DNA from: Candidatus Kapaibacterium sp.
GTDB taxonomy: Bacteria; Bacteroidota; Ignavibacteria; Kapaibacteriales; WFXC01
Length of the DNA: 61,014 nt
Assembly: GCA_027082775.1 (NCBI GenBank)
Contig: JALWUI010000112.1
Span: 1-61,014 of the forward strand
Reading direction: 5' to 3'
Positions 11,726-59,028 of this stretch are shown piece by piece. The translations under genes and the position numbers were made by a program. The notes beneath the pieces are model-generated. The model was given only the letters and a program-made list of their open reading frames with translations. It searched no databases and had not been told where the DNA came from. How positions within the stretch are numbered: the first letter of the stretch is position 1; every line of letters starts with the position of its first letter.

Positions 11726-11763
11726 TGATATCCCCTTTTTATCTGCTCCAACTTGTTTCGCAT

Positions 11764-26800: not shown

Positions 26801-29800
26801 GCGTTGTAGGATCCAGAGAATTCAGATGATCGGACAAGTAACTGATCCGCACTTTTTCAACGATTCCGCTCTGGCCCGTACTTACCTTATATATCCGAAC
26901 AATGCTGGTCGTCAGCGGCGAAACACTCAGCGTTGTGGACACCGGAATCAAATCGACTTCAATGGGTCCAACCAACGCACTATTGCCAAAGTCAATGCCC
27001 AGTCCTGCTGGACCCGGTGTATCAAGCGTTGCGTTAATAGTCAGGGACGTAGCGTGGACCGTTGCAGTTGTGTTGCCGCCGGTGTTCACAACAACTGATC
27101 CTGTCGTCTCTGCCAGGGTTCCACCAGCACCCAGCTCTAAGTTGTTGTTATTCAGATCCAGATTCGCACTCCCGCTGGTGACATATACCGTTCCACTGGC
27201 CAACGTTACATTACCTCCGAGGGTTACGCCACCACTATTCGCGACATACACATTGCCATTCGGATCGGCACCCCACTCACCACCGGTGGTATGTGCCGCC
27301 GTTCCCTGGTACCACAGATCTACGCCACTACCGTAGGTCGGTGTCCCATTAATTGTGGGGTCATTGATGATGTAGAAATCCGTGTTATTCTGGAAGTTGA
27401 GATTGTTGGCGTTATTCAACGTTATAGTTCCACCACTTTCCTCTACAACCGCCCGTGTGTGGATATTGACCGCATTGGTTAAACTCACTGTGCTGTTAGC
27501 ACTGAAATGATCGCGAATTTCGAACGCTCCTAAATTATTCAGTGCTGGATCAAAGCCGAATGTGACTGAACCATTCGTCCCATAGAAAATCAATGTTGAA
27601 GTTGTCACCCCTGCTGCTCCACCAAACGCTCCAGTACCAGCAGTGACAATAGTACCATACACGTGAAGTGTTTCCTTCATTCTCAACGTTCCATCATTCA
27701 AAGTGAGCGTTCCACTGGTTGCCAGCGTCAACGTATTGACCGTCACAATCTGCGATGCAGAGCTCACTGTCAAATTTAGTAGATGCTGTCCAGTGAAGTT
27801 AAAGTCGCCACTGATGGTTGCGGCATAGATGTGGAGTGATGAGGTTTCCGATCCTTTGTAGTTTCCACCGGTATTCGTAATAGTTCCCCCGGTTGCAACT
27901 GTGAGCGCATGATTCGGTGCAATATGAACGGTTCCAGCCGCATTGAGCAATGTCCCGTTCACCGTCACAGTAGCAACGGTCGCTATTTCCCCTGTGCGAT
28001 TCATTGTGAAGTTCCCAAGATTCTGATCTCCCTGGAATGCAAAAGTTCCCGAAATAGAAGCATTCCCTGCAATCGTCAGATCCGATGCCGGATCCCCCAT
28101 AAATGGCTGTGCCACGCTCAGCGTGATTGGACCATTTAACGTCAGATCATAGCTATTCAGATCCAGATATCCAGCGGAAACGGTAAAGCTACCATCAATG
28201 TCTTTTGCTCCGGTCAAATCAGCAGTCAGCACCACTCCTCCACTATTGCTCACAAAGAAGTTGTACGGCGCATTGGTAGCGGCATTCTCCAGTTCCGGTG
28301 TCGACGTCCGCTGGGTACTTCCCGCATACCACAGCGTCGATGTTGGACCATAGGTAATCTGTGAAGCGTTAGTAGCAATCTGGGCATTATCCCAGATTGT
28401 CCAGGTGTTATACAATGTCATCTGGAAGCCATCACCGAGCCCAAAGGTAAAGCTATTTGCCGTAACCGTACAGTTCGTCACCGACAGTGCTGCACCTGTG
28501 ACGGTCAGAGATCCAGTACCACCATTAAGATTGAGTGTCAACGTACCGATCGTGGCTGCTGCCGCAGCAAAGTCGATTGATGTTGAGCCGGAAGTTCCGG
28601 ACACTGCAATAGTAAGATCCGAAGAAGCACTCCCAGCGAAATCAGCATTAGCGACATCAAAGCTGAAAATCCCACCAGAATTTTGAATCGTCAAATGATT
28701 GCCATTCAAATCAAATGTTCCGGCCACAAATTGTGTTGCCGAACTCACCAAGGTTAAATCGCTGCACAAATAGACGGTCTGCCCCGGCCGATTCACCGTA
28801 ATATGGTGGAGCGTCTGATATCCTGCATCAAAATTCAAATAAACATCGCCAGCAGCGCCCTGCAAAACTTCAATCCACGCTGATGCAGATCCCCGCAACT
28901 TACCACCTGCCGAGCACGTCAGCGTTGTCCCATAGAGCGTTAGCGGTGAACCAATCGCCAAGGTTCCCTGCTTCAGGGACAACGTTCCGCTCGTCCCAAT
29001 TGCCAAATTCGACGCTGTAATATTCACATTCCGATCCAGCTCAAAGGTTTTGAGAATCGAACCGGATACAAAATCAAACTGTCCATTGACGGCACCACTT
29101 CCATTGAGAATGATTGTTCCCGCTCCCGGTGTAGAAGCGGTAAACTGCGAACCGGAAGTAATGACTACCGTACCAGACAATGTCAACGTTTCGTCATCCA
29201 CATCGACCACCGCCGAAGCATTCGTGACAACAAAACTCCCTGTAATAGTCGGCGAAGTTGTCAACTGCCAGTTACCTGGAACATCCACGGTCAAACTCCC
29301 GCTGATGGCTGTTGGCAGACCATCCCCGCTGATCTGCCCCGAAGCCCCATTGTAGACATAATGAGCAGCCCCATTAAAATTCCGTGCTCCTGTTTGCACA
29401 CTCCCTGTATTGCTGCTACTACTGATCCCCTGGGGATTAGCTGTCTTCAATGTCGCTCCGGAGTACAGATTAAAGGTACCGCCAGCCCCACTGAAAATAT
29501 TGCTTGCATCAAAAATGATCGTCCCATATACGTGAATAATACCACCATTGACATTATACGAAGTTGCCAGAGTTACATCCGATCCGCTTTGTACGGTCAT
29601 ACTCCCCTGAATGGTTGCTGGCAATCCTGAAGTGTTCTGCCCTGTACCGGTGAAATAGTAATGCCCATCGGATGCCAGCGTAATAGTGTTGGTATTGATA
29701 TTCCCCGCTGCTCCTGTCACCTGTGTAGCCGAAATGTAGAGATGTCCTCCTGGGTCCAGAATAAAAGTTCCCGTTCCTGTAACCTGTTTCGCTCCAGCAA

Positions 29801-37649: not shown

Positions 37650-38786
37650 ATGCAACAATTTCGCCAGCGCTGGTGGCGGATCTTTTTTCCTCTTGGGCTG
37701 GCGTTCCTCCTGCAGTGTACAGACACCGCACTTCCACCCTCGGACCAGATCCCCCTGCAACTTGAAATTCGAACCTCTCTTCTGGGCGGAACCGAAGGTT
37801 TTCCCGATACCCTGTACGCTTTTGTCCTGCATAGCAACCGTCGGCTGGCAAACGTTCGGATCTACTGGGATTTTGGCGACGGGACATTTTCTATCCAGAG
37901 CCAACCCGATACCGTATACCACCAATTTACCGCGGAAGGTAGCTTCACGGTATGGGTCGGAGTCTATGACAATCGGAGCCAGAATCTTTTAGGCTCGGCA
38001 GCACGCGATGTAAACATCCGCCGCACACTACCGCAATTCTCAATGGTGCGAATTCCTGCCGGCAGCTTCTGGATGGGCTCAGACCTCCGATACGAAGAAC
38101 GCCCGGTTCACCGTGTTACCATTTCTCGCCCTTTCTGGATCACCACAACGGAAGTTACTCAGCAACAATGGCAACAACTGATGGGATACAACCCGTCGTG
38201 GTTCCAGGGTGACCATCGCCCGGTGGAACAGGTAAGCTGGTATGAAGTGATCGATTTCTGCAATCGCCTCAGCCTACGCGCCGGCTTAACGCCGTGCTAC
38301 CGCTTCAGTGGTGATACTATTCTGTGCGACTTTTCTGCCAATGGATATCGCCTCCCAACCGAAGCAGAATGGGAATATGCGTGCCGGGCTGGCACGACGG
38401 GAGATTTTGCCAATGGCTCGTTGGATAATCCCTATCTCCAATGCGAAGATATTCCCCTGGTAGACTCTATTGCGTGGTACTGCGGTAACGCCGATTTCCA
38501 GACCCATCCTGTTGGACAGAAAGCTCCGAATCCGTGGGGCTTGTATGATATGCACGGCAATGTTGCCGAATGGGTGTGGGATGTTGCTGATGCAACCTAC
38601 TATCAACGATCTCCGGACACAGATCCGACTGGACCGCTCTCGCTGAAAGATCTTCCACGTACTATTCGCGGTGGTTCCTGGTCCGATCCGATCCACTACT
38701 TACGTGCTCCTGCTCGTTTTTTTAAATTGCCCCCTTTTCGGAAAACATTCAGTGTTGGATTTCGCCTGGTTCGCAATGCAGAATAA
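37650..38786 (+). CDS. putative lipoprotein with PKD domain and formylglycine-generating-enzyme (SUMF1/FGE-sulfatase) domain
   Basis: The ORF-track start (37566) lies inside tRNA-Ala. ATG 37650 gives MQQFRQRWWRIFFPLGLAFLLQC (lipobox-like). PKD-like VRIYWDFGDGT...YHQF..EGSFTVWV. FGE domain MVRIPAGSFWMGS....E.P.H.V.I..PFWI...EVTQ.QW...MG.NPS.F......PVE.VSW.....FCN.LS, GYRLPTEAEWEYACRAGT, NPWGLYDMHGNVAEW, IRGGSW, GFRLVR. Confidence 0.85.
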   Translation: MQQFRQRWWRIFFPLGLAFLLQCTDTALPPSDQIPLQLEIRTSLLGGTEGFPDTLYAFVLHSNRRLANVRIYWDFGDGTFSIQSQPDTVYHQFTAEGSFTVWVGVYDNRSQNLLGSAARDVNIRRTLPQFSMVRIPAGSFWMGSDLRYEERPVHRVTISRPFWITTTEVTQQQWQQLMGYNPSWFQGDHRPVEQVSWYEVIDFCNRLSLRAGLTPCYRFSGDTILCDFSANGYRLPTEAEWEYACRAGTTGDFANGSLDNPYLQCEDIPLVDSIAWYCGNADFQTHPVGQKAPNPWGLYDMHGNVAEWVWDVADATYYQRSPDTDPTGPLSLKDLPRTIRGGSWSDPIHYLRAPARFFKLPPFRKTFSVGFRLVRNAE

Positions 38787-40128
38787 GATTTTGTACCTTT
38801 TTGGACTTCCCGGTATCCTGATCCTGGGACTGCTGCTTGCGCAGTGTGACCACCAAATGACGGCGCCATCTTCCCCATCATTTCAGGATTCCATTGCGCT
38901 CTACCGCCGAACGCTGCTTTCAGCCGAACAGTGCAAGGAATGCCACCCGAAACACTATCGAGAATGGCAAACGTCAATGCACGCTTATGCTTTCGTCGAT
39001 CCAGTCTTTTTTGCTCTGGACAGCATTGGTCGGCAACGATCTTCTGGATTGTTAGATCAATTTTGCATTCAATGCCATAGCCCACTTTTGCCACTTTTAG
39101 GCGAAAAAATGGCGGTGGGCGGGAAAGCAATGCTTCCGCCGATTGCTCACGAAGGAATTACGTGTGACGCCTGTCACAAAATGGTCATTGATGCAACACC
39201 ATCGCGAGGGGTTATCGCCCTTTATGCTGACTCTGTCTACCGAGGACCAATTCCCGATCCTGTCCCCAATGATTTTCACCAGTCTCGCTACGACGAACGC
39301 TACAATCAGAGCATCGTATGCAAATCGTGTCACGACTTCCATACTCCCGCAGGATTTTTTATCGAGCGGACATTCACTGAATGGCAGAACAGTGTGTATC
39401 CGGGACGGAACATCCAGTGTCAGACGTGCCATATGAAATCTTCGCCGGGAAAAGTTGCTGTCAGTGGTCCGGAACGGGAACGAGTGCATAGTCACATTAT
39501 GGAAGGCGTGGACATTCCCTTAGTAGATTTTCCTGGGCGGGATGAAATGATCCAGCGCGTATCCTACCTCCTTCAGTATGCGCTCAAAATGTCCGTATTT
39601 ACGCCGGAATCCATTCGCCGCGACACCGTGTTCCCTGTCCGCGTTGAACTGAGCAACACCATCACGGGACACAATATTCCAACAGGATCCATTTTTGAGC
39701 GCCAGATGTGGCTTGAATGTTTGCTCATCGATCAGGCAACAGGAGATACCCTCTTGCTTTCTGGAGATATGGATCCCAATGGCGACCTGCGTGATCAGCA
39801 CAGTGAGTACGTTCAGCAAGGACTTCTCCCACTCGATTCTCAATTGATTGTCTTCCGGGGAGTTCCGTTGCGGAATGGAAAAGAAATTCCCTTTTTCTGG
39901 GAAGCGGATGCGATCTATGACCGGACTATTCCGCCTTTTGAAACTCGTATGATCCACTTCCGCATTCCCATTGCATCCACCGTGCAAGGACCCTGCAAAC
40001 TCCGCATACGCCTCCTGTTCCGCAGCTTTCCTCCTTATCTCCTCCGAAAAATCGGGCTGGAATCACTGATCCCGAAACTGGTGACTTTTGAAATGGAGCG
40101 ATTTGAGACAACACTTCCTGTAGAGTGA
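38776..40128 (+). CDS. pentahaem c-type cytochrome, putative lipoprotein
   Basis: Start taken at ATG 38776 (MQNKILYLFGLPGILILGLLLAQC), overlapping the upstream stop by 11 nt. Five CxxCH motifs: CKECH, CIQCH, CDACH, CKSCH, CQTCH. Confidence 0.8.
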   Translation: MQNKILYLFGLPGILILGLLLAQCDHQMTAPSSPSFQDSIALYRRTLLSAEQCKECHPKHYREWQTSMHAYAFVDPVFFALDSIGRQRSSGLLDQFCIQCHSPLLPLLGEKMAVGGKAMLPPIAHEGITCDACHKMVIDATPSRGVIALYADSVYRGPIPDPVPNDFHQSRYDERYNQSIVCKSCHDFHTPAGFFIERTFTEWQNSVYPGRNIQCQTCHMKSSPGKVAVSGPERERVHSHIMEGVDIPLVDFPGRDEMIQRVSYLLQYALKMSVFTPESIRRDTVFPVRVELSNTITGHNIPTGSIFERQMWLECLLIDQATGDTLLLSGDMDPNGDLRDQHSEYVQQGLLPLDSQLIVFRGVPLRNGKEIPFFWEADAIYDRTIPPFETRMIHFRIPIASTVQGPCKLRIRLLFRSFPPYLLRKIGLESLIPKLVTFEMERFETTLPVE

Positions 40129-40352: not shown

Positions 40353-40564
40353 AGTCGGCGAGCTCAAACGCGGCAATCAGCACGCCTGGCACGGTGTGCT
40401 CAGAAGTCAACGGCTGTTTTTTTATCTTCTGCCTTGCTACGCTGCAGTGGACAGCGAGCCCGTGGTGACTTTCCCATCTCTGCTCCTGCACCTTGCAGCG
40501 ATCACCCGTAGTTGAGTTCAACAAATTGCCCGATTTGACTCAACCTCTGCCTTCTGTCCCGACC

Positions 40565-40572
40565 TATTTTTG
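40565..40572 (+). promoter_or_regulatory. candidate -7 box TATTTTTG upstream of the tail-fibre-like gene
   Basis: The TAnnTTTG match would put a transcription start near 40579, which argues against the ATG at 40580 and for the ATG at 40619. Confidence 0.3.
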
Positions 40573-40618
40573 CAGTTGGATGAAAAAGGAAGTGGTGCAA
40601 ATCAAAGAGGGACTCACG

Positions 40619-43600
40619 ATGAAAGAAACGGTACGGTACACGTTTTTGCTGCTGATTCTGGGCACTGTTTCTCTGTGGTCGCAAAGTTTTCCTTCTAAGA
40701 TCCCTTTCCAGGGAATGCTCACGACAAGCGGCAACGTCGCTGTTCCAGACGGCACCTATCAACTGACTTTCAAACTGTACACCACCAGTTCCGGTGGTAC
40801 TGCGCTCTGGAGTGAAACGCAAAATGTAACGGTTCGGAACGGTCTGTTCTCCGTCCTGTTGGGATCGAATACGGCGCTCAACTTAGACTTTCGGCAGCAA
40901 TACTACCTGGGCATTACAATTGGCAACGGCAACGAACTATCCCCGCGTATTCCGCTGGGCGTTGCTCCCTACAGCTTCCGCTCTCAATGGGTAGAAACCG
41001 TGACCACCGGCAATATATTTCCACTCTTTACGGCTGGAACGGGAATCACGCTCAGTGCTTCAGCAACAAACCTGACGATCTCAGCACAGGCTGATCAACC
41101 ATTATGGAATGCTGCTCAATTGCAGGGACGTCCCATTGCAACGGCTGCACCCAGCACTGGACAGGTGCTTCAGTGGAGCGGTTCGCAATGGCAGCCAGCA
41201 ACGATCGGTGGCGGTGGAACTCAGAATACCGGCGGGGACTTAACCGGACCGGTGACCAACGCTACGGTGATTGCCCTTCGAGGCTATCCGATAGCCAACA
41301 CGGCGCCCAGCACCGGACCGGTCTTGCAAGGGAATGGCCCCCAATGGCAACCGGCAACCGTCAGCGGAAGCGGTGGGACCAGCGGAACAGCCGGATGGGC
41401 AACCAGTGGCAATCTGATTTCCAGTAACGAATTTCTGGGCACGTTGAACAACGCACCACTTCGCATTCGGGTCAATAATCAGCAGATGTTTCAGTGGAAC
41501 ACCAACGGGAGTATCCAACGAGACGCTGGCGGAAATGCTCGCGGAAAGTATGCAATCGATCTGCAAATGGTGCGAACCAGCAACAACGATGTTGCCAGTG
41601 GAGACTATAGCGTCATTGGTGGCGGACGGCGCAATCAGGTCTCAGGAGACTACTCGACAATTAGCGGCGGATATTTCAACACTATCGAGAGCAACCGCAG
41701 TACCATTGGAGGTGGCTACTCACACGATATTTTCTACAATGCGGATTACGGAACGATCGGCGGAGGACGAAGTAACGAACTTCGTTCGCCGTACACAGCC
41801 ATCGGTGGTGGATGGGGCAATGCTATACAATCAGAATCTGAAAACAGTACCATCGGTGGCGGCAAATACAATGACATCGGCACTTACAGTTGGAACAGTA
41901 CCATTTCAGGTGGTTACTACAATAGCATTGCAGATTTCGCTCCACGGTCAACTATCAGCGGTGGCGAACGTAATGATGTTGGAGAAGATGCTGATGGCGC
42001 AACCATTGGCGGCGGCTACAACAATGATATTTTGGCTGGAAGCGATTATGCAACGATTAGCGGTGGATACTACAATGACATTGATACCTCTGCTGTTGCA
42101 GCAACCGTTGGCGGCGGAGACAACAACAACATTGGCAAACATTCCACATCCGCAACGATCGGCGGTGGTGAAGGAAATGACATCGGAATGCTCTCTCCTG
42201 GCGCCACGGTCAGTGGTGGTCTGGGCAATGACATTGGCAATTCTGCTGGTGGAGCAACCATCAGCGGCGGCGAATACAACAACATTGGAAATCTTGCGCA
42301 ATGGTCAACGATTGGCGGCGGAAGTGTTAATGAAATCTTATCCAATGCCAGAGGCGCAACAATCAGCGGCGGCGCTTTAAACACGATTAAAGCCAACACC
42401 CAATTTTCCACCATTAGCGGTGGCGAACACAATATTATTTCCAGCGACCACGGCACTATCGGCGGTGGAAATTTCAACCGAATCTATGGCGATTTCGCTG
42501 TCATCGCCGGCGGCGGTGGAAGTAGCATCTCTGACTCCAATTCCATCACTGCCGACTGGGGCGCTATTTTGGGCGGTAAGCGACACCGCATTCAGGCTCC
42601 TTATGGCACAATCATCGGCGGACTGCAAAACACCATCTACGGCAACGCAACGGCTGCTACCATTACAGGCGGACAAACAAATCTCGTTGCCACGGGTTCT
42701 CAATACAGTGTAATCGGCGGCGGCAATGCGAATGAGATTCAAGCCAACGCATCGTATGGAGTGATTGGTGGTGGCGATCGTAACGCCATTCGCTCTTCCG
42801 CTTCCTACGCTGCCGTTGGAGGTGGTCGCTTGAACACCATCACGGGTAGCTACGGAAGCATCAGCGGCGGCGATAGCAACACTGTTGCGGAAACCTATGC
42901 CAGTATTGGCGGTGGATACAAAAACCTGGCGCAGCAGCAAGGGGCAAGAATTGGTGGTGGTGGCTACAACAAAGCACGGGGGAATTTCGCTGTCATCGCT
43001 GGCGGCGGCGGAAGTAGTGCGGCGGACTCCAACTCCATCACTGCTGATTGGGGTGCAATTCTGGGCGGGAAGCAACACCGCATTCAGTCACCATACGCCA
43101 GCATTGGCGGGGGCAAGCACAACCTTATTTACCCCTCCGCAACTGCTGCAACGATCGGTGGTGGAGAAAACAATACGATTGTTACCAGTGCCCAGTTGAG
43201 TACTATTGGGGGAGGTTATGAGAATACTATCAGAGCCTCCGCTTCGTATAGCACCCTGGTCGGCGGCAAATACAACACCATTCAGGAAAACTCCAATTAC
43301 GGTTTCATCGGTGGTGGAAATGCTAACACCATTGGATTCAGCAGTCCAGGTGCGACTATTGCTGGTGGATACAGCAATTCGATCAATCCTCTCGCCGAAT
43401 TTGCCTTTATTGGTGGCGGATATTACAACCAAGCGGTTGCTCCCAATGCAACGATTGGAGGTGGTGGTTTCAATCGAGGGGATGTCGCGTGCTTTGTCGG
43501 TGGCGGACTGGGAAACACCACCTATGGTGAATACGACGTTATCGGGGGCGGATATAACAATTCTATCTCCAGCCCCTCTGGCACAATCGGTGGCGGAAAA

Positions 43601-45589
43601 TACCACACCATCTTTTCCCACAGTACTTCCTCGACAATTGCTGGTGGAAGGTATAACATCATCGGCAACAATTCACCTCTCGGTTTCATCGGCGGCGGCT
43701 ATCACAATGTGATCTTCGCCAAGTATGGCGTGGTCGGTGGCGGTGGCGGTCCCAGCTTTCGAGATTCCAATGCCGTCGTCGCTGACTGGGGTGCAATTCT
43801 GGGCGGACAGCACAACAAAGTATCTGGCACTGCAGGGAGCATCGTCGGAGGCGATGGCAATCTAGTTGCTGGCAACTATGCTCACATCGGCGGCGGATAT
43901 AAGGACACGGTCGCCGGTTCGTACGCAGTCATCAGCGGTGGAAACTCCAATAAGGCTTTAGCAAACTACAGCTTCATTGGCGGCGGGAATAGCAACACAG
44001 CATCGGGTCAATATGCTGCTATCGCTGGTGGGGCATCTAATGAAAGTGCGGGAAGTTACAGCAGTGTTACCGGAGGATATTCCAACAAAGCCACTGGCAA
44101 CTATAGCGGCGTGAGTGCCGGATCGACCAACGAAGCAACGGGAAGCTATAGCGCCGTTGGAGGCGGGTACAGAAATCAGGCAACCGGAAGCTATAGTCTC
44201 ACCGGTGGCGGTGCTTACAACAAAGCTGGTGGACAGTATAGCGCTGCGGTCGGTGGATATCGCGATACAGCATCCACTGATTATGCTTTCGTCGGTGGCG
44301 GTTCTTATAACGCTGCCTCTGCTCCCTTCGCCTTCGTTGGCGGTGGATCGGTCAATAAAGTTTCGGATTCGGCAAGTACTATCAGCGGTGGGTTCAGTAA
44401 TACAGTCTCTGCCCGCTACGCCACGATTAGTGGGGGACGTTCAAACCGGATATCCAATTCCTATGGGACCATTGGTGGCGGCAAGGAAAATCTTGCGTCT
44501 GCTCTGTACGCAACGGTAGGCGGTGGATACCGCGACACCGCTTCTGGTGCCTACACAGTTGTCAGCGGTGGAGCGGATAATACTGCCTCTGGAAGTCATA
44601 GCACTATTGGTGGTGGGCTGAGCAATGCTGCTTCGGGCAATGCAGCAGCAATTGGTGGCGGTGCATCCAACGCTGCCGCTGGTGCATACGCTGCCATTGC
44701 TGGCGGCATCCACAATGTTGCACCTGGGGAACGATCTGCTATTGCCGGTGGCGACTCCAATCGTACTGCCGGCAACTACAGCGGTGTGCTCGGCGGATTC
44801 GCCAATCAGGCGACGGGCAACTATAGTGCCGTGGGCGGTGGAGCATTGAACAACGCTGCTGGAGCTTACAGCGTCGTTGCCAATGGACAATCGAACACTG
44901 CTGCCGGAGCCTACAGTTGGGTCGGTGGCAAGAGTATGTACCTCTCAACTTCCGCAACGCATACCTTCGTATGGGGATACGCCTCAGCGACGTCGGCGAT
45001 TACGACTGCCAATGCTTTCCTGATCGCCCCCTATGGACAGACCTTTGTTGTCGGAATCAACGTCTCTTCGCCAACCTATGCACTGGAACTTCCCAACAAT
45101 ACGACCAATACCATTGGCAAGGCGCGAGCAAATGACTGGGTCACGTATTCGGACGATCGGATCAAAAGCCGTATCCGTCCTATTGACAGTGCGCTGGCGG
45201 TCGTTCTCCGAATGCAACCGGTACACTACTATCAGCATAGTACTCGCTGGGAAAACGGCAAATTAGTGGTATCGCCAACGGGTGAAGATCGCTACGGATT
45301 TTTGGCACAACAACTGGCACAAGTGGTGCCTGAAGCTGTGGAAGCACCGCAGAATGCATCGGATCTGTGGAGCATCAGCTACCTACAACTTATTCCCATT
45401 CTGACGGCGGCACTTCAGCAACAGCACAGTATCATCGAACAACAGCAGGAAACCATCGAGCAACTCCAGCAAAAAATTTTCCGTCTGCAAGAGCAGCTTG
45501 TCCGCTTTGTTACCATGCAGCAGTACATCCTCTCAATCGTGCGCCCAAGCCAACGCGTTCAGTATGGTGCAGTAGGATCGCAACGGTAA
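40619..45589 (+). CDS. ~1656-aa tail-fibre-like surface protein: N-terminal fibre domain, about 75 YadA-head-like GG..N repeats, peptidase-S74 intramolecular-chaperone C-terminus
   Basis: The ORF opens at 40493. ATG 40619 (preceded by AGAGGGA) gives the signal peptide MKETVRYTFLLLILGTVSLWSQS. Twin motif L.G.PIA..APSTG.VLQ..G.QWQPAT. Roughly 14-15-aa repeats S.IGGG..N.I......STI(G/S)GG from about 41590 to 44930. The C-terminus NDWVTYSDDRIKSRIRPI...YGFLAQQLAQVVPEAV...ISYLQLIPILT followed by a coiled coil fits the S-D-x-R-x-K Ser/Lys dyad of endosialidase/tail-fibre chaperone domains (Ser codon 45149-45151, Lys codon 45164-45166). Confidence 0.85.
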   Translation: MKETVRYTFLLLILGTVSLWSQSFPSKIPFQGMLTTSGNVAVPDGTYQLTFKLYTTSSGGTALWSETQNVTVRNGLFSVLLGSNTALNLDFRQQYYLGITIGNGNELSPRIPLGVAPYSFRSQWVETVTTGNIFPLFTAGTGITLSASATNLTISAQADQPLWNAAQLQGRPIATAAPSTGQVLQWSGSQWQPATIGGGGTQNTGGDLTGPVTNATVIALRGYPIANTAPSTGPVLQGNGPQWQPATVSGSGGTSGTAGWATSGNLISSNEFLGTLNNAPLRIRVNNQQMFQWNTNGSIQRDAGGNARGKYAIDLQMVRTSNNDVASGDYSVIGGGRRNQVSGDYSTISGGYFNTIESNRSTIGGGYSHDIFYNADYGTIGGGRSNELRSPYTAIGGGWGNAIQSESENSTIGGGKYNDIGTYSWNSTISGGYYNSIADFAPRSTISGGERNDVGEDADGATIGGGYNNDILAGSDYATISGGYYNDIDTSAVAATVGGGDNNNIGKHSTSATIGGGEGNDIGMLSPGATVSGGLGNDIGNSAGGATISGGEYNNIGNLAQWSTIGGGSVNEILSNARGATISGGALNTIKANTQFSTISGGEHNIISSDHGTIGGGNFNRIYGDFAVIAGGGGSSISDSNSITADWGAILGGKRHRIQAPYGTIIGGLQNTIYGNATAATITGGQTNLVATGSQYSVIGGGNANEIQANASYGVIGGGDRNAIRSSASYAAVGGGRLNTITGSYGSISGGDSNTVAETYASIGGGYKNLAQQQGARIGGGGYNKARGNFAVIAGGGGSSAADSNSITADWGAILGGKQHRIQSPYASIGGGKHNLIYPSATAATIGGGENNTIVTSAQLSTIGGGYENTIRASASYSTLVGGKYNTIQENSNYGFIGGGNANTIGFSSPGATIAGGYSNSINPLAEFAFIGGGYYNQAVAPNATIGGGGFNRGDVACFVGGGLGNTTYGEYDVIGGGYNNSISSPSGTIGGGKYHTIFSHSTSSTIAGGRYNIIGNNSPLGFIGGGYHNVIFAKYGVVGGGGGPSFRDSNAVVADWGAILGGQHNKVSGTAGSIVGGDGNLVAGNYAHIGGGYKDTVAGSYAVISGGNSNKALANYSFIGGGNSNTASGQYAAIAGGASNESAGSYSSVTGGYSNKATGNYSGVSAGSTNEATGSYSAVGGGYRNQATGSYSLTGGGAYNKAGGQYSAAVGGYRDTASTDYAFVGGGSYNAASAPFAFVGGGSVNKVSDSASTISGGFSNTVSARYATISGGRSNRISNSYGTIGGGKENLASALYATVGGGYRDTASGAYTVVSGGADNTASGSHSTIGGGLSNAASGNAAAIGGGASNAAAGAYAAIAGGIHNVAPGERSAIAGGDSNRTAGNYSGVLGGFANQATGNYSAVGGGALNNAAGAYSVVANGQSNTAAGAYSWVGGKSMYLSTSATHTFVWGYASATSAITTANAFLIAPYGQTFVVGINVSSPTYALELPNNTTNTIGKARANDWVTYSDDRIKSRIRPIDSALAVVLRMQPVHYYQHSTRWENGKLVVSPTGEDRYGFLAQQLAQVVPEAVEAPQNASDLWSISYLQLIPILTAALQQQHSIIEQQQETIEQLQQKIFRLQEQLVRFVTMQQYILSIVRPSQRVQYGAVGSQR

Positions 45590-47650: not shown

Positions 47651-48244
47651 CTATCTCGTGCTCTCCGGAAATGCGCTTCCCACAACCTTCAAGGTGTTGT
47701 CTTCGGTCAATACCACAATCGTTTCCCCTGGGGAAACAACGATATGTTGCAACTGCTGTCGCTTCTCCGGAAAAGCTGTTTCCTCCAGCGTGACCGATAC
47801 TTTTCCCACCCACGGAATTTCTTCGTAAAACATAATAGCAGCATCTTCCCGAATTCCGCGCGGGCGATGGATCGCATCGTACAAGACAGTATCCCGATCC
47901 TCATCATAAACGGTCAATCGGATCGGTGAACGGCGCTGGGAAATGACCACTTTCTGCGTCATATGCTTCAGCTTCGCTTTTGGGTGGTATTGCTCGACCG
48001 TAGTGGAAACATACGAAATTGCAAACACCAAATAGCCGGTATCGGTACGGTACCAGTGATACGTCCACGTACTGCCAACCCACAGAAGCACTCCTAAAAT
48101 AGCAATAGCGCCAGTCAGAAGGAAAAAATTTGTGGGATAATGCCCCAGCACCTGAATCTTCGGATGATGGAGCTTCTCTTCCTGCCGCTGTTTCTGCTGC
48201 CGTTTGGTACTGAGAACTGCTCGAATGTCACTGAACAGGCTCAT
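47651..48244 (-). CDS. hypothetical membrane-anchored protein, last gene of the oxidase operon
   Basis: 197-aa ORF with one or two N-terminal TM segments. Overlaps the upstream gene by 17 nt. No motif recognised. Confidence 0.55.
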   Translation of the reverse strand: MSLFSDIRAVLSTKRQQKQRQEEKLHHPKIQVLGHYPTNFFLLTGAIAILGVLLWVGSTWTYHWYRTDTGYLVFAISYVSTTVEQYHPKAKLKHMTQKVVISQRRSPIRLTVYDEDRDTVLYDAIHRPRGIREDAAIMFYEEIPWVGKVSVTLEETAFPEKRQQLQHIVVSPGETIVVLTEDNTLKVVGSAFPESTR

Positions 48245-49721
48245 CTATCTGCTCGCTTTGTTGCTGAAATGCTGCCAGGCATTCGGCTAATGAAGCTGAT
48301 GTCGGACACATTGTAATTCTATCCGTTGGAACGTCCTTCGGCAACTGAGGACGGCGGTACCGGCTCAGCCGCAATTGCGTCCACTGAGGTCCCAGCCGAT
48401 AGTAGCACCGCTCACAATGCAACAGCATCACCCCACTGTATTGTCCTGTTCTCCATTGCTCAGCTACCATTGCTGGATGCAGATCGCCAATGCACGCCAG
48501 TGGCTGGACTGTCCCATATTTGCGCAGCTCGTGCAGTTCTTCTACCGTCAAGGACGAGCCACAGGCGTAAATCAGCAGCGATGCTTCTGCTTCTTGCGCA
48601 GGCAGTGGTTTTGGGATCGGGACAGAAATTGCCTGAAGATGACAGGAAGCAATGCAAATGCCGCATCGAACACACAGCGCTGGATCGATCGAAGCTTTGA
48701 AAACGGGTCGTTGCATTTGCCCTACTGATCCCGATGTTGTCGGACGCATCGTAATGGCAGAATAGGGACAATCCAGATAACACTGCCGGCATCCATCGCA
48801 TTGCTCAACGTCAATTTCCGGTACTGAAAGTGCTAATCGCTCCTGTACTTTCGGTAGAAACGGTAAGGCAAACAATACAATGCCAGCAGCAACCCAGAGA
48901 ACCCAGACCAGTGTTGGTGAGAACCAGCGCAACAGTTGATAGCCAGCAAAGTAATACCAATCCCACGTAGTATGCAGCGGTAAAAACAAACTGGTCGCTG
49001 GTAGATCACTGCGGACGGGAACGACCAGTGCCAGGATGCCAAATAGTGCCAAAAGTCCCAGCGTAATGTTCCGCGGCGGCAACAACCGCACAGCGTTCAT
49101 CCGCATCACGTGAATCCAGAAGAGAATCAGCACCCCTAGAGAGAAAAACAAGTGTGCAAATAGCATCACGCGAAAGAAGCCTCCCAACAAATGTGGGTCC
49201 TTGAGCACAAAAGCAATGGGTAACGTTGGTTCAAAAATCGGTAATGTTGTCAACAACTGAGCAGACAACAGTCCCAGCAACTTCGCTTTTGCATCCCACA
49301 CCAGGATAAAGCCCGACAATCCGATCAATCCCATTACAAAGATCATCACGATGCCAGAAAACCACGCGATTTTCAGGTGGTATTTCCGCAGCAGCAGCGT
49401 GTGGAGAAAATGAATCAGGCTAAAAACAATGAAGGCATCGGAACTGTACCGATGTACTCCCCGCATCAAACTTCCCAGAAGGGTCGATGAAATCTCCTCA
49501 ACGGATTGATATGCTACTGCCGGATCGATCTGGAAGAAAATGAACAGATAAATTCCCGACAGAGCGGCGATCAAAAAGGTGACAAAGGAAAGCTGTCCAG
49601 CAAAATACAGCGGATTCTCATCAGTTCCGGTAATCCAATTGAGTTTCGCTGCAATACGCAAATACAAACGATGTCCTTTCACAAGAAAGCTTTGCATTCT
49701 CAGCACCGTTGTTACTTGCAC
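48228..49721 (-). CDS. fusion protein: di-haem cytochrome b domain + 2x[4Fe-4S] ferredoxin + FlpD/MvhD-like C-terminal domain
   Basis: 497 aa. Two His pairs 14 residues apart in TM helices (GVHRYSSDAFIVFSLIH and AHLFFSLGVLILFWIH), as in cytochrome b. CDGCRQCYLDCP and CVRCGICIASC clusters. The C-terminus LLIYACGSS...LACIGDLHPAMV...GVMLLHCERCYY resembles the FlpD (methyl-viologen-reducing hydrogenase delta) pattern. Confidence 0.7.
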   Translation of the reverse strand: MQVTTVLRMQSFLVKGHRLYLRIAAKLNWITGTDENPLYFAGQLSFVTFLIAALSGIYLFIFFQIDPAVAYQSVEEISSTLLGSLMRGVHRYSSDAFIVFSLIHFLHTLLLRKYHLKIAWFSGIVMIFVMGLIGLSGFILVWDAKAKLLGLLSAQLLTTLPIFEPTLPIAFVLKDPHLLGGFFRVMLFAHLFFSLGVLILFWIHVMRMNAVRLLPPRNITLGLLALFGILALVVPVRSDLPATSLFLPLHTTWDWYYFAGYQLLRWFSPTLVWVLWVAAGIVLFALPFLPKVQERLALSVPEIDVEQCDGCRQCYLDCPYSAITMRPTTSGSVGQMQRPVFKASIDPALCVRCGICIASCHLQAISVPIPKPLPAQEAEASLLIYACGSSLTVEELHELRKYGTVQPLACIGDLHPAMVAEQWRTGQYSGVMLLHCERCYYRLGPQWTQLRLSRYRRPQLPKDVPTDRITMCPTSASLAECLAAFQQQSEQIDEPVQ

Positions 49722-49723
49722 TT

Positions 49724-50488
49724 TTACCGCGCTGCTCTGACCCGATTGCGAAGGAAAAAGAAGATCAGGGAGCCCAGAACAATGATTCCAGCCGCCAGGT
49801 GAATAAGAATGGAGACATCAAACTGAATCTCTCCGGTCACTGGATCATAGACAAAACACTGGGTCCACGCCCGATCCCACCAAGATATTCCCTGCAGGTT
49901 CTGAGACGCTGCTGTAATCGCCTTACGAATGGATCCGGGATCCGGACTCACTCCAACATAGTAACTGGAAATTCGAGCACCTGCTGTCAAAAAAACCGCT
50001 AAATTCGGGTGGGTATAGATTTGTAGTCGATCATCCCAGCGCACCGGCATCCCAATCGCTGCCAGCAGCGTATCGATTGCTGCGGAATCTGCGGAAACCA
50101 CATACCAGCTATCCACTGGCAGTTTCCACCGCCGGCGGAAACGCTTCAGGTCTGCCGGAGTGTCCCGATGATCAAATGAGAAGGTGATCACGGTGAGGCT
50201 CTTTCCTGGCTCTCCCAGTGTTTCCAGCGCTTCTTTCCACCCTTCGGTAATAGCGGAACAGGAATGAGGACACGAAGTATAAATCGGCAGCAATAAAACC
50301 GGCTGCGTGTGAAAAAGAGACAGCAGGGAGAAGGAATCTCCCTGCTCGTCGAAAACCGTGATAGGGGGTAGCACGGCTCCAGAATGATCGGTATACGGCT
50401 TCGCTGTATCACTCCACCCTGCAATTTGGCAGAGTATCCACCATACAGCAAGCGCTATTATCCAACGTACCATGTCGCTGCCAGCCAC
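49724..50488 (-). CDS. SCO1/SenC-family copper chaperone (thioredoxin fold) with C-terminal TM segment
   Basis: 254 aa. VLLLPIYTSCPHSCS (CxxxC), ..ITFSFDHRDTP..L..F, and a conserved downstream His (IYTHPNLAVFL). An alternative start is Met6 at 50473. Confidence 0.8.
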   Translation of the reverse strand: MAGSDMVRWIIALAVWWILCQIAGWSDTAKPYTDHSGAVLPPITVFDEQGDSFSLLSLFHTQPVLLLPIYTSCPHSCSAITEGWKEALETLGEPGKSLTVITFSFDHRDTPADLKRFRRRWKLPVDSWYVVSADSAAIDTLLAAIGMPVRWDDRLQIYTHPNLAVFLTAGARISSYYVGVSPDPGSIRKAITAASQNLQGISWWDRAWTQCFVYDPVTGEIQFDVSILIHLAAGIIVLGSLIFFFLRNRVRAAR

Positions 50489-52137
50489 TTCCAGTTCAGG
50501 AAGAACAGAAGGATGAAAACAGCTAAAAAGACCAATGTTAACGTAAAGGTTCCGGGCGCCAGGAACTTCTTGCCGGATTCTGCGGGCAATGCCACTGGCG
50601 ATGCGATTGGCAGTTGCATATCTTCTGGTCCGTTAACCTTCGGTCCAAAGAACACGGAGATGACCACAATCAGGACCCAGATGAGCGCACCAATAAATGC
50701 CAAAGTTCCCCCAATGGCAAAAGTCACCCAGAAGAAATCTGCAACGGGATTAAAGGCATGGGTAAAGGGACCACCAGAAAAGGTAATATCCCAATGTCGG
50801 CGGGGAACGCCAAAGACGCCCAGCACAATCATCGAAATCGCCAGGATGCCAATGCCAATAGCAAAGAGCCAGGGTTGAATCTTTGCCCATTTGAATCCCA
50901 CGATCTTCCGTCGAAAGATCAGCGGAATCAGGTAATAGGTCACGCCCATAAAAGTCAGCGTTGTCCCAAAGACCACCGTTCCCTTAAAGTGCCCCGGAAT
51001 TGCCAGCGTATTGTGCACAATGATGTTTGTCTGTTCCATTCCGTAGATCACACCGGTAATACCACCAATAAACCCAAACCCTATGATTGCCAGCACAATC
51101 GCTGAAAACGCTGGATTGCCCCAGGGTGCTTTAGCTAACCATTCAAACAACCCCCGAATGTATCCTCGCTGCCGCTGGGCAACTTCAATCGTTGCAGGGA
51201 CAGCAAATGCGTGGATCATCGATGCCAGCACTGCCAGGTACATCGCGTAACTGGTATTCCACACTTTCCACGAAGAGCTGACCGCAGGATCCACCAGAAT
51301 ATGGTGCGCCGATGCCAGACAAATGAACAGGATATAAAACAAAAATGCTACACGGGATACTTTTTCGTTGATCGAAAATCCACCAACCGTCAGAAATGCG
51401 ACTAAGTACCAGATGGACACCATTGCCGTCACATTGATCTGCTGCGAGCCGTGTCCCAATCCCCACCAGATAAGTTTGTACGTCGCGGGGTCCAGATTTT
51501 TAAACACGCCGATATCTAAGGACCAGAAAAAGGTGGGGATGTAAATCATCGCGCCACTGGCAATGCTAATCACCGCAATGATAGCCGCTGCAACTAATCC
51601 AAATGTAAAGAGCGGCAAAGACCGCAAATTCTGTTCCCGCCGCGCGACAATGATGTTGAGGAAAAACACAATCACACCGATCAATGCCCCAACAGCGAAC
51701 AAAATAATTCCCAGGTAAAAAAGCGGATGTGCTTTCAACGGCACATATGAAGTCATCAGCACATCAGCTTCGCCGGCAAAAATCATAATGTCAGTCAACA
51801 GGAAGCCGGCAAACATCAGCCAGAATCCAAGCTTCGCCATCCGCGGCGTCACCACTCTGGCGTTGAGCACAACCGTGGAGCCGAAATACAATCCGGCAAT
51901 TTCAAAAAAGATGATCCAGAAAATCAACGCATTGATGCCGTGAAGGGTAAGAATTCGGTAATACCAATCGGCACTGAGCAAGTGCACCGACTGCCACCGG
52001 GTAAAGACCAGCAGCAAAGCAGCGGTAATTCCAATCAACAATGACACCACCGCCCACACAGCGTGAGAACGGATCAACTTTTCTGCCAATCGATCGACTT
52101 TGAAACCCGTAATGTCGCACGTACGAAATTCTGCCAT
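50458..52137 (-). CDS. heme-copper oxidase superfamily subunit I, B-family-like but with non-canonical active-site and haem-ligand residues
   Basis: 559 aa, aligns by eye along its length with Thermus ba3 CbaA (YYRILTLHG.NA, EADVLMTSYVPLKAHPLFYLG, SAHHILVDP, IVHNTLAIPGHF). WWGLGHGSQQI replaces WWTGHPIVY (no cross-link Tyr). GHFKG replaces GHFHL. Confidence 0.85.
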   Translation of the reverse strand: MAEFRTCDITGFKVDRLAEKLIRSHAVWAVVSLLIGITAALLLVFTRWQSVHLLSADWYYRILTLHGINALIFWIIFFEIAGLYFGSTVVLNARVVTPRMAKLGFWLMFAGFLLTDIMIFAGEADVLMTSYVPLKAHPLFYLGIILFAVGALIGVIVFFLNIIVARREQNLRSLPLFTFGLVAAAIIAVISIASGAMIYIPTFFWSLDIGVFKNLDPATYKLIWWGLGHGSQQINVTAMVSIWYLVAFLTVGGFSINEKVSRVAFLFYILFICLASAHHILVDPAVSSSWKVWNTSYAMYLAVLASMIHAFAVPATIEVAQRQRGYIRGLFEWLAKAPWGNPAFSAIVLAIIGFGFIGGITGVIYGMEQTNIIVHNTLAIPGHFKGTVVFGTTLTFMGVTYYLIPLIFRRKIVGFKWAKIQPWLFAIGIGILAISMIVLGVFGVPRRHWDITFSGGPFTHAFNPVADFFWVTFAIGGTLAFIGALIWVLIVVISVFFGPKVNGPEDMQLPIASPVALPAESGKKFLAPGTFTLTLVFLAVFILLFFLNWKWLAATWYVG

Positions 52138-52761
52138 TTATTCTTCTCCTTCTTGTTCAACAACTTCCCCACCTTCATCTTCAAAATACTCGCTTTCATA
52201 CGCTTGCAGGATTTTCTGATACTCCTGATCATTGGCTGCTACGATGATCTTACCGATCATCATATGGTGACCAATACCGCAGAATTCGTTGCAAAAAATC
52301 TTATACTCCCCTGCTTCCGTCGGCGTAAACCGCAGAACGTAATCATAACCGGGATACACCATAAAGTTCATATTCACCGGCTGGAGGGAAAAACCGTGCA
52401 GCAAATCCAAGGAATACAGATGAAACGTGTATGTCTCACCCTTTTTCAGTAGCACCACCGGTGCCCATTGCCACATACGCGCGGTAAAGAACACGTGTGA
52501 ACCGGGCTCCGGCGCAACGACTGGTAATCCATTGTCTTCGCCAACCTGATTGTTCTCCAGATATGCATTGTACAACTCCAGATACTCTGGCACGGATGCC
52601 CGATACGTAATGTTCGACGGATTCTGCCGCCCAAAAGAATGCCATCCAATCATCCAGAAAAAGAGGAAGAAGCACACAAAGGTTGCTACCGCAACCCATC
52701 CCTTCTCATCGGTTGCTACCTTCTGCCACACCCATCCTTCTTTCGGCGGAATCAGTGTCAT
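52138..52761 (-). CDS. heme-copper oxidase subunit II with complete CuA site
   Basis: The ORF track starts at 52839, overlapping the upstream gene. ATG 52759-52761 (MTLIPPKEGW) lies 2 nt after the upstream TAG. One TM plus a cupredoxin domain. CuA ligands are LDLLHGF and CNEFCGIGHHMM. Acidic tail EDEGGEVVEQEGEE. Confidence 0.85.
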   Translation of the reverse strand: MTLIPPKEGWVWQKVATDEKGWVAVATFVCFFLFFWMIGWHSFGRQNPSNITYRASVPEYLELYNAYLENNQVGEDNGLPVVAPEPGSHVFFTARMWQWAPVVLLKKGETYTFHLYSLDLLHGFSLQPVNMNFMVYPGYDYVLRFTPTEAGEYKIFCNEFCGIGHHMMIGKIIVAANDQEYQKILQAYESEYFEDEGGEVVEQEGEE

Positions 52762-52763
52762 AG

Positions 52764-52952
52764 CTACTGCCCTCCCATTATCACCGACTTCAACTCTTCC
52801 GGAAACTGCGGAACGTTCGAAACCTCGATCAAGCCCCACGTTAGATAAAAGATGACAAAGATCGCAACGCCCAAGAACAACAACACAATCGGCTCATCCA
52901 GAATGGTTTGCAACATCGAAAAGCGCTCAGATTGCTGCCGCTCTTCTGCCAT
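52764..52952 (-). CDS. 62-aa single-TM protein, first gene of the oxidase operon (possible subunit IIa-like)
   Basis: One hydrophobic helix (IVLLFLGVAIFVIFYLTWGLI) and tight coupling to subunit II. The function is inferred from position only. Confidence 0.5.
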   Translation of the reverse strand: MAEERQQSERFSMLQTILDEPIVLLFLGVAIFVIFYLTWGLIEVSNVPQFPEELKSVIMGGQ

Positions 52953-57420: not shown

Positions 57421-58428
57421 TTATTCCTCCATTAAATCTTCACTTGTTAGCTCGCGTAAGATTCGGACTGCCCGCTTGCCATCGAGCACTCCTGGACGCA
57501 CTGCAAATTTCGGTCGCTCGCCCACAATAAGACGAAGTTCATCATCAATGCGGGTATCCAATTTGATCACATCCCCTTCTTTGAGCTCCAGCAGTTCTTT
57601 GACCGTAATATACGCATGTCCCAGCTCCGCCACGACCGGCAACTGGGTTTTCTCGATTCGGCGGCGAATCAATTCCCGATCTTCTTTCTGTTTCTCCGGA
57701 GACACCCGAATGCCAGCGGTTAAGTGGCGCCATCCGATTTGTGCCAGTACATTTTCCAGGGTGAAGGTCGGATAACATAAACTCATCGAGAAAGTATGGG
57801 TGCCTAAGGTAACGTCAAACACAACGACGATCACGATTTCTGACGAAGGAGCAATCTGGACAAAATCCGCTTCGCTCTCATACCGATCCAGCCGGAATTT
57901 CAGTGGATAGATCACCTGCCAGGTTTCCGACAGTTGACGCATAATGTGCTCCACCACATTACGCAAGATCGTCTGTTCAATAGCGCTCAAAACCCGTGGC
58001 GATCGCGTAATCTCAACTTCCCCACCCAGCAGCCGGGCGACAATGGCTAAAGCCAACTGGGGACTCAGTTCCAGAATTCCACTGCCCTCAGTCCCCACGA
58101 CATCAAAGACATACAAACAACTGGGGCTGGCAACGGACAGAATGTACTCGGAATAAAAAAGCTGATCGACGGAAATAACATTGATGGTTACCACCGTTTG
58201 CAATTGAGAAACCAGATAGTAGGACAGGGATTCGGAGAAATTCTCGTGTAGCGTCTGGATCGTTCGGAGCTGATTCTTGGATAAGCGATTCGGTCGCCGG
58301 AAATCATACAACTGCACTTCCTTATGCTTCTGCGTTCCCTGCTGGATCAGTTGATCAACCGGCACCTCCCCACTCTGAATGCTCGCCAGCAGTTGGTCGA
58401 TTTCCTGCTGTGACAGGACATCCTTCAT
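57421..58428 (-). CDS. fliM: flagellar motor switch protein FliM
   Basis: 335 aa. N-terminal LSQQEIDQLL (CheY-P binding motif), YDFRRPNRLSK, and a C-terminal SpoA-like domain. Confidence 0.92.
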   Translation of the reverse strand: MKDVLSQQEIDQLLASIQSGEVPVDQLIQQGTQKHKEVQLYDFRRPNRLSKNQLRTIQTLHENFSESLSYYLVSQLQTVVTINVISVDQLFYSEYILSVASPSCLYVFDVVGTEGSGILELSPQLALAIVARLLGGEVEITRSPRVLSAIEQTILRNVVEHIMRQLSETWQVIYPLKFRLDRYESEADFVQIAPSSEIVIVVVFDVTLGTHTFSMSLCYPTFTLENVLAQIGWRHLTAGIRVSPEKQKEDRELIRRRIEKTQLPVVAELGHAYITVKELLELKEGDVIKLDTRIDDELRLIVGERPKFAVRPGVLDGKRAVRILRELTSEDLMEE

Positions 58429-58434
58429 CGCTGT

Positions 58435-59028
58435 CTACTGCACAAGAAATTTTGTGAAACGGACTTTCCGAACCCGAATTTCCCCAAAGTATGGCTGAAT
58501 TCTCTTTTTGATTTCTTTCTTCAGCTTCTCTTTAAAATCCGGCTGGAGAAATTCCTCAATCCAGTGAGAGCTTACCACATCGATAATTTCATCCTTTACC
58601 GGAATCAAAATCTCCTCCAGATGCTTTTCATCGATTTCCTCCTCAGTATCTACCTCCAATGCAACCCGTAGCACCACGTAGCGTGGCTCGGGGGAACGAC
58701 TGCGAGCATTGACGATGATGTCTTCATCTCCCACAGGGATCAATTTCCCGACTTTAAACATTACCACATCTTCTTCATCTTCTTCTGGCTGCTCCTCTTC
58801 TACTACCCGAGTTCGTTTCTCCTTGCTCTTGCCCTCTTCCTCTGCATTCGTATGCTGCGGTGCGAGGAAGAATTTAAAAATCGCAAAGACAATGGCAGCT
58901 TGCACCACCAATACCCCCAGCACCAACCCAATAATAGCTGGCACTCCTAATTTCCCCTTTTCTTTCTTCGGTTTCTCTTCCGCTTGTTCCTTTTCTTCGT
59001 CAGCCATCGCTCTACTCGATTGATCCAC
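58435..59028 (-). CDS. fliL: flagellar basal-body-associated protein FliL
   Basis: 197 aa. Lys/Glu-rich N-terminus, single TM (IIGLVLGVLVVQAAIVFAIFKFF), and a C-terminal FliL-type domain (..RYVVLRVALEV......L....IPVKDEIIDV.S....EE). Met8 (ATG 59007) is an alternative start. Confidence 0.85.
   Translation of the reverse strand: MDQSSRAMADEEKEQAEEKPKKEKGKLGVPAIIGLVLGVLVVQAAIVFAIFKFFLAPQHTNAEEEGKSKEKRTRVVEEEQPEEDEEDVVMFKVGKLIPVGDEDIIVNARSRSPEPRYVVLRVALEVDTEEEIDEKHLEEILIPVKDEIIDVVSSHWIEEFLQPDFKEKLKKEIKKRIQPYFGEIRVRKVRFTKFLVQ

Follow-up and report, generated by a model that had tools for sequence, protein, structure and literature searches.

What kind of enzyme is encoded by a haem-copper oxidase (HCO) gene in which glutamine stands in the place of the active-site cross-link tyrosine, and lysine in the place of a histidine ligand of the low-spin haem? 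The question is raised by a gene on the minus strand (50458–52137) of contig JALWUI010000112.1 of Candidatus Kapaibacterium sp. (assembly GCA_027082775.1), a stretch of 61,014 nucleotides that was analysed at its full length and is referred to here as the window. An earlier note had aligned the protein by eye with Thermus ba3 subunit I, likened the loss of the tyrosine to nitric oxide (NO) reductases of the eNOR or sNOR type, and considered the operon functional rather than decayed. We put the probability that its product is the catalytic subunit of an NO reductase of the eNOR type, from a subclade with Lys at the second ligand position of the low-spin haem, at roughly 80%, the activity being predicted from sequence.

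The protein matches the Pfam COX1 domain (PF00115) over residues 22–477 with an E-value of 1.3e-63. The NCBIfam oxidase equivalogs all score far under their cut-offs (the highest, CtaD, reaches 75.6 bits against 670.75), and the C-family and NOR models of the same collection give very weak scores. Among all PDB chains, the top phmmer match is Thermus thermophilus ba3 subunit I (E about 1e-44, query residues 57–518 aligned to residues 63–515 of the ba3 chain), followed by the Aquifex aeolicus B-family oxidase 7deg (6e-35) and by A-family oxidases at about 1e-10. An AlphaFold2 model (predicted local distance difference test score 84, predicted template modelling score 0.87) contains 13 long helices, and its top structural matches are again T. 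thermophilus ba3, with template modelling scores of 0.78–0.80, and then the A. aeolicus HCO 7deg. The Pfam and phmmer matches bear out the identification as an HCO subunit I that aligns with ba3.

Residue equivalences were read from the HMMER alignment to 1ehk_A in native ba3 numbering (Table 1). The Val-Tyr of the ba3 HPxVY motif is replaced by Gln232-Gln233, and apart from the Lys385 substitution the remaining metal ligands are complete. This formal alignment leaves the motifs where they had been placed by eye, so that the missing Tyr and the Lys at the second low-spin haem ligand position both stand, and the codon positions given earlier for His229, Gln233 and Lys385 proved exact on re-derivation. 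The AAG codon of Lys385 lies two base changes from either His codon.

The residue at the Tyr position differs between HCO families, being Tyr in O2 reductases, Glu in cNOR and qNOR, Asn in sNOR and Gln in eNOR (Schwartz et al. 2022, Table A4, after Hemp & Gennis 2008). The eNORs are described as derived from the B family, with a CuA subunit II and a ba3-like K-channel that includes an equivalent of Ser309, a residue for which sNOR has no equivalent (Murali et al. PNAS 2024). They carry modified haem As in both sites, and ctaA is found in many, though not all, of their operons; the purified R. marinus enzyme (Rmar_0161) reduces NO and not O2. The literature on the family also covers the Magnetospirillum ‘cytochrome a1-like’ protein, and Natronomonas is the genus of an earlier eNOR description. 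In the Kapaibacterium protein Gln233 occupies the cross-link position, converting HPxVY to HxxQQ, and neither the three His that bind the non-haem metal nor the proximal His of the high-spin haem has been lost. A CuA cupredoxin subunit II adjoins the gene, and the B-type K-channel residues Ser306 (equivalent to Ser309), Tyr244 (equivalent to Tyr248) and His309 are invariant among the relatives. Lys385 sits at the position that marks the His/Lys subgroup of eNORs. A search seeded with a 40%-identical relative (P0132) led to haloarchaeal proteins, including that of Natronomonas pharaonis, that carry the motif HG[ST]QQ. In a neighbour-joining tree of 55 sequences (distance-based, 100 bootstrap replicates, without the R. 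marinus Rmar_0161 reference) the protein falls within an HxxQQ clade that includes the N. pharaonis group and has a bootstrap value of 100, outside of which lie an HxxQY group and then the HPxVY B family. Of the two possibilities mentioned in the earlier note, it is eNOR that is favoured, by the diagnostic Gln, the tree and the operon.

Other HCO families were considered and set aside. A B-family O2 reductase would have the HPxVY cross-link motif, in which Tyr is here replaced by Gln. Both sNOR and bNOR can be ruled out by Gln rather than Asn at the Tyr position, and sNOR also by the presence of Ser306. The gNORs, in which an active-site His is changed to Asp and subunit II lacks CuA ligands, do not agree with the three His and full CuA site found here. 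Finally, cNOR, qNOR and nNOR, with a Glu FeB site, a haem c or quinol donor and, in nNOR, a His/Met haem, are ruled out by Gln, CuA and Lys.

Both substitutions were followed through the relatives of the protein. Among the 129 closest relatives in the database (58–99% identical to the query) Gln232 and Gln233 are present in every sequence and Lys385 in 124. A locus scan with one genome per GTDB species, from which the best 80 loci were taken, divides into 39 loci with the helix-X motif HNT[LI][AS][IV]PGHFKG and 41 with HNTLRIPGHFH[AV]. Gln232 and Gln233 do not vary across a joint alignment of 201 sequences, in which position 385 is Lys in 150/150 members of the Lys group (61–99% identical to the query) and His in 47/47 sister bacterial sequences (53–62% identical) as well as in all four haloarchaeal relatives (about 40% identical). 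The Lys group forms a clade with a bootstrap value of 100, nested within the HxxQQ clade. Its members include Chitinophagaceae, Saprospiraceae, Cyclobacteriaceae and Flavobacteriales of the Bacteroidota, Aquificota such as the cultured Hydrogenobacter thermophilus (WP_340690361.1) and Hydrogenivirga caldilitoris (WP_121011183.1), Nitrospirota (e.g. Ca. Magnetomonas) and the hot-spring bins HR19 and HR21. Copies of the gene with 99% identity are also present in several independent assemblies. The presence of Lys385 in all 150 clade members shows that it is neither a sequencing error nor a product of decay, and the Gln233 and Lys385 substitutions are real and under selection.

The surroundings of the low-spin haem change together with its ligand. 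His66, His229, His278, His279 and His383 are invariant in the 201-sequence alignment. Position 70 (codon 51928–51930), one helix turn from His66, is Met in 47/47 His-type sequences and Ala in the Lys type; position 379 (codon 51001–51003) is Arg in 47/47 His-type sequences and Ala or Ser in the Lys type; and position 386 (codon 50980–50982) is Gly in 150/150 Lys-type sequences. These three positions track Lys385 perfectly, and positions 86, 181, 310, 312, 367 and 370 also differ in conservation between the two types. The invariant His66 and the co-varying positions bear the marks of a haem pocket remodelled under selection and not of decay, and are consistent with a low-spin haem pocket in the Lys clade that is remodelled yet occupied.

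The earlier note suggested that no description of the His-to-Lys change existed. It has in fact been described: the low-spin haem of ‘some eNORs’ is stated to be ‘ligated by histidine and lysine’ (Murali et al. bioRxiv 2021, PNAS 2024), and these were the only reports returned by a full-text literature search for haem-copper enzymes with histidine-and-lysine ligation. Gln-for-Tyr is thus the family-defining change and Lys-for-His a published variant, and the gene adds one more member, open to mis-annotation, to a subclade already known. That the family had already been characterised with these residues is true of the sequence description but not of the biochemistry, as there is apparently no purified His/Lys eNOR, and the PDB holds no eNOR structure. 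R. marinus Rmar_0161 is not among the best 120 protein matches, the best 80 GTDB loci, the haloarchaeal matches or the ten expanded clusters. Its absence from the matches of at least 58% identity, together with the wording ‘some eNORs’, suggests that the purified R. marinus enzyme is of the His type. What remains of value is a Lys clade that is well delimited, with its companion substitutions, and that has cultured hosts for biochemistry.

The gene lies in a tight minus-strand cluster of six, comprising a small transmembrane protein, subunit II, subunit I, SCO1, a cytochrome b/Fe-S fusion and a 197-residue protein (Table 1). A tblastn search with the six proteins against the best 80 GTDB loci found the gene order kept in essentially all Bacteroidota loci, and the cluster is syntenic across at least eight phyla. 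The alignment of subunit II to its ba3 counterpart (phmmer E=8e-16, full length; NCBIfam CoxB 2.9e-13) and the Pfam match of SCO1 uphold the earlier observation of a full CuA site followed by an SCO1 chaperone, and the intact cluster agrees with the view that the operon is functional. The CuA ligands of subunit II are complete (His, Cys-x3-Cys-x3-His-x2-Met), the motifs reading DLLHGF and CNEFCGIGHHMM compared with DVIHGF and CNQYCGLGHQNM in ba3, and the Glu of the subunit II motif EKGW aligns with ba3 Glu15(II) at the entrance of the ba3 K-channel. The open reading frame (ORF) of subunit II reaches a GTG at 52839, overlapping the small transmembrane gene; the ATG at 52761 avoids this overlap and gives the 207-residue form called in loci L081 and L082. 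The small protein itself, for which no Pfam match was found, is called at 50–62 residues on sister contigs and is found by gene callers in L081 and L082; a homologue (31–53% identity) stands in the same place in most of the 80 loci, and by analogy it may correspond to ba3 subunit IIa. The SCO1 gene, syntenic in most of the 80 loci, shares 16 nt with the end of the subunit I gene; its ORF reaches 50488, with CPHSC at residue 73 of this long form, and the gene is called in L081.

The fusion protein begins with a di-haem cytochrome b (two His-x13-His pairs, about six transmembrane helices), continues with a 2x[4Fe-4S] ferredoxin domain (two CxxCxxCxxxC) and ends in a Cys-containing domain; its PDB matches are cytochrome b6 and the polyferredoxin FwdF. 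No Pfam domain was found in the C-terminal 140 residues, the Cys pattern of which we take to resemble that of MvhD/FlpD. The fusion adjoins the eNOR genes in about 68/80 loci, of many phyla and of both the Lys and the His type, and the exceptions are mostly short contigs. In the operon of Ferrigenium straubiae (2026 preprint), eNOR II and eNOR I are accompanied by haem o synthase, sco1, a scaffold protein of unknown function and two genes for cytochrome b and [Fe-S] domains, the last two termed ‘rather unusual’ by the authors. Our order of subunit II, subunit I, sco1 and unknown protein with cytochrome b/[Fe-S] matches this operon nearly gene for gene. As a partner of bacterial eNORs the fusion is near-universal and no oddity of Ferrigenium; how widely the two are associated may be under-appreciated. 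The 197-residue protein, for which no Pfam or NCBIfam match was found, has a syntenic homologue (22–32% identity) in nearly all Lys-type loci and may be the counterpart of the scaffold protein.

Table 1. Positions in the window of the putative eNOR cluster, of the metal-site residues of subunit I and of other features.
Feature	Coordinates	Strand	Length	Basis or remark
Putative eNOR subunit I	50458–52137	minus	559 residues	COX1 match, ba3 alignment, 13 predicted transmembrane helices
His66 (LTLHG)				= ba3 His72; first ligand of the low-spin haem
His229 (WWGLGH)	51451–51453	minus		codon CAC; = ba3 His233; CuB ligand
Gln233	51439–51441	minus		codon CAG; = ba3 Tyr237; cross-link Tyr position
His278/His279				= ba3 His282/His283; CuB ligands
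His383				= ba3 His384; ligand of haem a3 (high-spin haem)
Lys385	50983–50985	minus		codon AAG; = ba3 His386; position of the second axial ligand of low-spin haem b
Small single-transmembrane protein	52764–52952	minus	62 residues	transmembrane segment at 22–40; directly upstream of subunit II
Putative eNOR subunit II	52138–52761	minus	207 residues	N-terminal transmembrane helix and periplasmic cupredoxin domain, CuA
SCO1/SenC copper chaperone	49724–50473	minus	249 residues as called	Pfam SCO1-SenC 1.5e-07; CPHSC
Cytochrome b/Fe-S fusion	48228–49721	minus	479–497 residues	Pfam Cytochrome_B 5e-10, Fer4_7 7e-08
197-residue protein	47651–48244	minus	197 residues	function unassigned; one transmembrane segment (40–58); last gene of the cluster
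Multihaem protein	38671–40128	plus	485 residues	five CxxCH, cytochrome c554-family domain
Large surface-type protein	2733–9029	minus	2098 residues	many immunoglobulin (Ig)/PKD repeats, weak type IX secretion C-terminal sorting domain
Large surface-type protein	9662–11770	minus	702 residues	Ig-like
Large surface-type protein	40493–45589	plus	1698 residues	C-terminal Peptidase_S74 (endosialidase chaperone)
Giant ORF	11814–30527	minus	6237 residues	Invasin_D3 and Filamin repeats in the C-terminal half
fliL/fliM	57421–59028			

Links to denitrification come from the neighbours of orthologues. A survey of 112 flanking ORFs in 10 Lys-type loci gave as the commonest families cNMP_binding (6) and HTH_Crp_2 (5), both of Crp/Fnr-type regulators, Cytochrom_D1 (5), c-type cytochromes (4) and radical SAM (3). 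In both Aquificota Lys-type loci (L032:12541-15890, L034:12531-15844) a cd1 nitrite reductase gene, nirS, directly follows sco; its product has a cytochrome c domain and a D1 domain (Pfam Cytochrom_D1, E=1e-119), a second D1-domain paralogue comes after it, and the cytochrome b/Fe-S fusion lies on the other side on the opposite strand. No NCBIfam model recognises these nirS-like neighbours, though Pfam does. The adjacency of nirS in orthologues supports NO as the physiological substrate of the Lys-type enzymes.

Several points weigh against assignment as a His/Lys eNOR. Scans of the 61-kb window found no other nir, nor, nos or nar gene, and neither ctaA nor ctaB was found in the operon of the window or in the families that most often adjoin the 10 Lys-type loci. 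The tie to a biochemically proven eNOR is indirect, running through the Natronomonas group and the diagnostic residues, and the family tree, of 55 sequences, is a distance-based neighbour-joining and not a maximum-likelihood tree. The literature search returned neither spectra nor a structure nor activity measurements for a His/Lys eNOR, and Lys385 as an iron ligand is predicted solely from its position. A specialised B-family O2 reductase that works without the His-Tyr cross-link, and is thus the terminal oxidase of the annotation, would sit well with the lack of denitrification genes in the window, with the nearest solved structures being ba3 oxidases and with the database names ‘cytochrome c oxidase subunit I’ or ‘cbb3-type’. 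We nevertheless hold it to be very unlikely, as Gln replaces Tyr in 201/201 relatives, O2 reduction by HCOs needs a redox-active Tyr, the purified R. marinus eNOR does not reduce O2, the NCBIfam oxidase models fall far short of their cut-offs and nirS adjoins the Aquificota orthologues. To a decaying or non-functional oxidase gene, altered by relaxed selection, we give next to no credence: it would account for the loss of two residues near-universal in HCOs, but not for an intact ORF in six-gene synteny across phyla, the full conservation of Lys385 in its clade and of Gln233 throughout, copies of 99% identity in independent assemblies or a confident AlphaFold model. Pseudogene and sequencing-error readings are ruled out by the conservation data.

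A different doubt concerns the role of Lys385 rather than the family. Lys-haem ligation in other haem proteins is often pH-dependent and exchangeable, and Lys385 might not bind iron at all, leaving a five-coordinate high-spin haem or a ligand switch governed by redox state or pH, in which case the haem would serve as gate, sensor or second NO-binding site and not as a simple electron relay. The loss of Arg379 and Met70 alongside the gain of Lys385 does point to a substantially remodelled pocket, and no experimental spectrum for the Lys clade was found in the literature. This possibility nonetheless seems to us quite unlikely, since His66 and the remainder of helix X (HNT...GHF) do not vary, Gly386 and Ala70, likewise invariant, look space-making, as if for a longer ligand, and near the site there is no substitute His or Met whose conservation is peculiar to the Lys clade (Met367 is 18 residues further up the helix); the published prediction is also His/Lys ligation (Murali et al.).

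If the protein is a His/Lys eNOR, it would catalyse 2NO + 2e- + 2H+ -> N2O + H2O. Electrons would enter from a periplasmic donor at the CuA of subunit II, matured by SCO1, and pass through the low-spin haem (His66/Lys385) to the high-spin haem (His383) and non-haem metal (His229/His278/His279). With Gln233 in place of the cross-link Tyr, four-electron O2 reduction would not be supported but two-electron NO reduction would. Protons could be taken up from the cytoplasm through an analogue of the B-type K-channel (the subunit II Glu, Tyr244, Ser306 and His309), and such cytoplasmic uptake would make the reaction electrogenic. Which residues are present, how far they are conserved, the placement in the family, the make-up of the operon and the linkage of nirS in orthologous loci are shown here; the NO reductase activity, the Lys-iron ligation, the proton uptake and the nature of the haems and of the non-haem metal are inferred from what is known of the family.

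The cytochrome b/Fe-S fusion is a candidate electron-input partner. Given about six transmembrane helices its Fe-S domains should face the cytoplasm, a topology in keeping with a connection to quinone or to a cytoplasmic carrier and not with electrons being passed straight to the periplasmic CuA. We tentatively suggest that the Lys-clade eNORs, and perhaps bacterial eNORs generally, form a fixed module or membrane supercomplex with the cytochrome b/Fe-S/Cys-rich fusion and the 197-residue protein, linking NO reduction to the quinone pool or a cytoplasmic low-potential carrier, and that the change from His to Lys, with Met70Ala, Arg379Ala/Ser and Gly386, adjusts the potential of the entry haem, or the lability of its ligand, to the altered electron supply. 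We regard this as rather unlikely; if true, it would represent a previously uncharacterised architecture of electron input and energy coupling for a haem-copper enzyme.

Comparison with characterised and predicted systems places the protein closest to the eNOR family, with which it has in common Gln at the Tyr position, the three His, a CuA subunit II, a B-type K-channel with the Ser309 equivalent, and an operon containing sco1 and an unknown accessory protein. It differs in belonging to the Lys subclade, in an operon without ctaA and ctaB, and in its identity of about 40% to haloarchaeal and 53–62% to His-type bacterial eNORs. T. thermophilus ba3 (PDB 1ehk, 3s8f) is the closest solved structure, sharing 13 helices, the ligand positions for the haems and CuB, a CuA subunit II with the Glu15(II) equivalent and possibly a subunit IIa-like small protein. 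At about 25–30% identity the two differ in Tyr237 to Gln, His386 to Lys, Thr312 to His309 and Thr315 to Ala312, and in the substrate, O2 in ba3 and predicted to be NO here. The predicted nNOR (Murali et al. 2024) is likewise a B-family-derived putative NO reductase in which the second low-spin haem His is replaced, a precedent for tuning the low-spin haem by ligand exchange, though the new ligand there is Met and not Lys, and the active site is cNOR-like with Glu in contrast to the eNOR-type Gln. The sNORs of ammonia oxidisers (norSY-senC) also combine a CuA subunit II and SenC/SCO1 in the operon with loss of the Tyr, but have Asn at that position and no Ser309 equivalent, where the present protein has Gln and an invariant Ser306.

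In the databases all relatives examined bear the name ‘cytochrome c oxidase’ or ‘cbb3-type’ (P0010, P0014, P0025, P0069, P0110 and others), a systematic mis-annotation that conceals NO reductases in genome surveys. Enzymes of the eNOR type, usually mis-annotated, account for a large part of the NO reductases in the environment and therefore of N2O production. A naturally occurring His/Lys low-spin haem in a haem-copper enzyme, which the literature has already predicted from sequence, would be a useful natural experiment on how NO reduction and possible proton pumping depend on the potential of the entry haem. Added here is the finding that the cytochrome b/Fe-S fusion accompanies bacterial eNORs across phyla.

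Further HCO-related and cytochrome genes were seen in passing. Two Bacteroidota loci (L002:2734-4065, L008:4150-5532) contain a second, short COX1-family gene of 444–461 residues, 4–7 kb upstream of the eNOR cluster; these products score 39–63 bits against CcoN (cut-off 583) and represent a divergent C-family or NOR-like HCO. About 10 kb from the eNOR cluster in the window lies the gene of the c554-family protein, a possible periplasmic electron carrier with weak homologues in two His-type loci, L044 and L047.

The remaining neighbours in the window include carA, aminotransferases, prolyl-tRNA synthetase (ProRS), the flagellar genes fliL and fliM, and very large surface proteins. The N-terminal 3176 residues of the giant ORF have no Pfam match. 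Together, the surface proteins and fliL/fliM suggest a flagellated bacterium of the Fibrobacteres-Chlorobi-Bacteroidetes (FCB) group, and not a typical member of the Bacteroidota.

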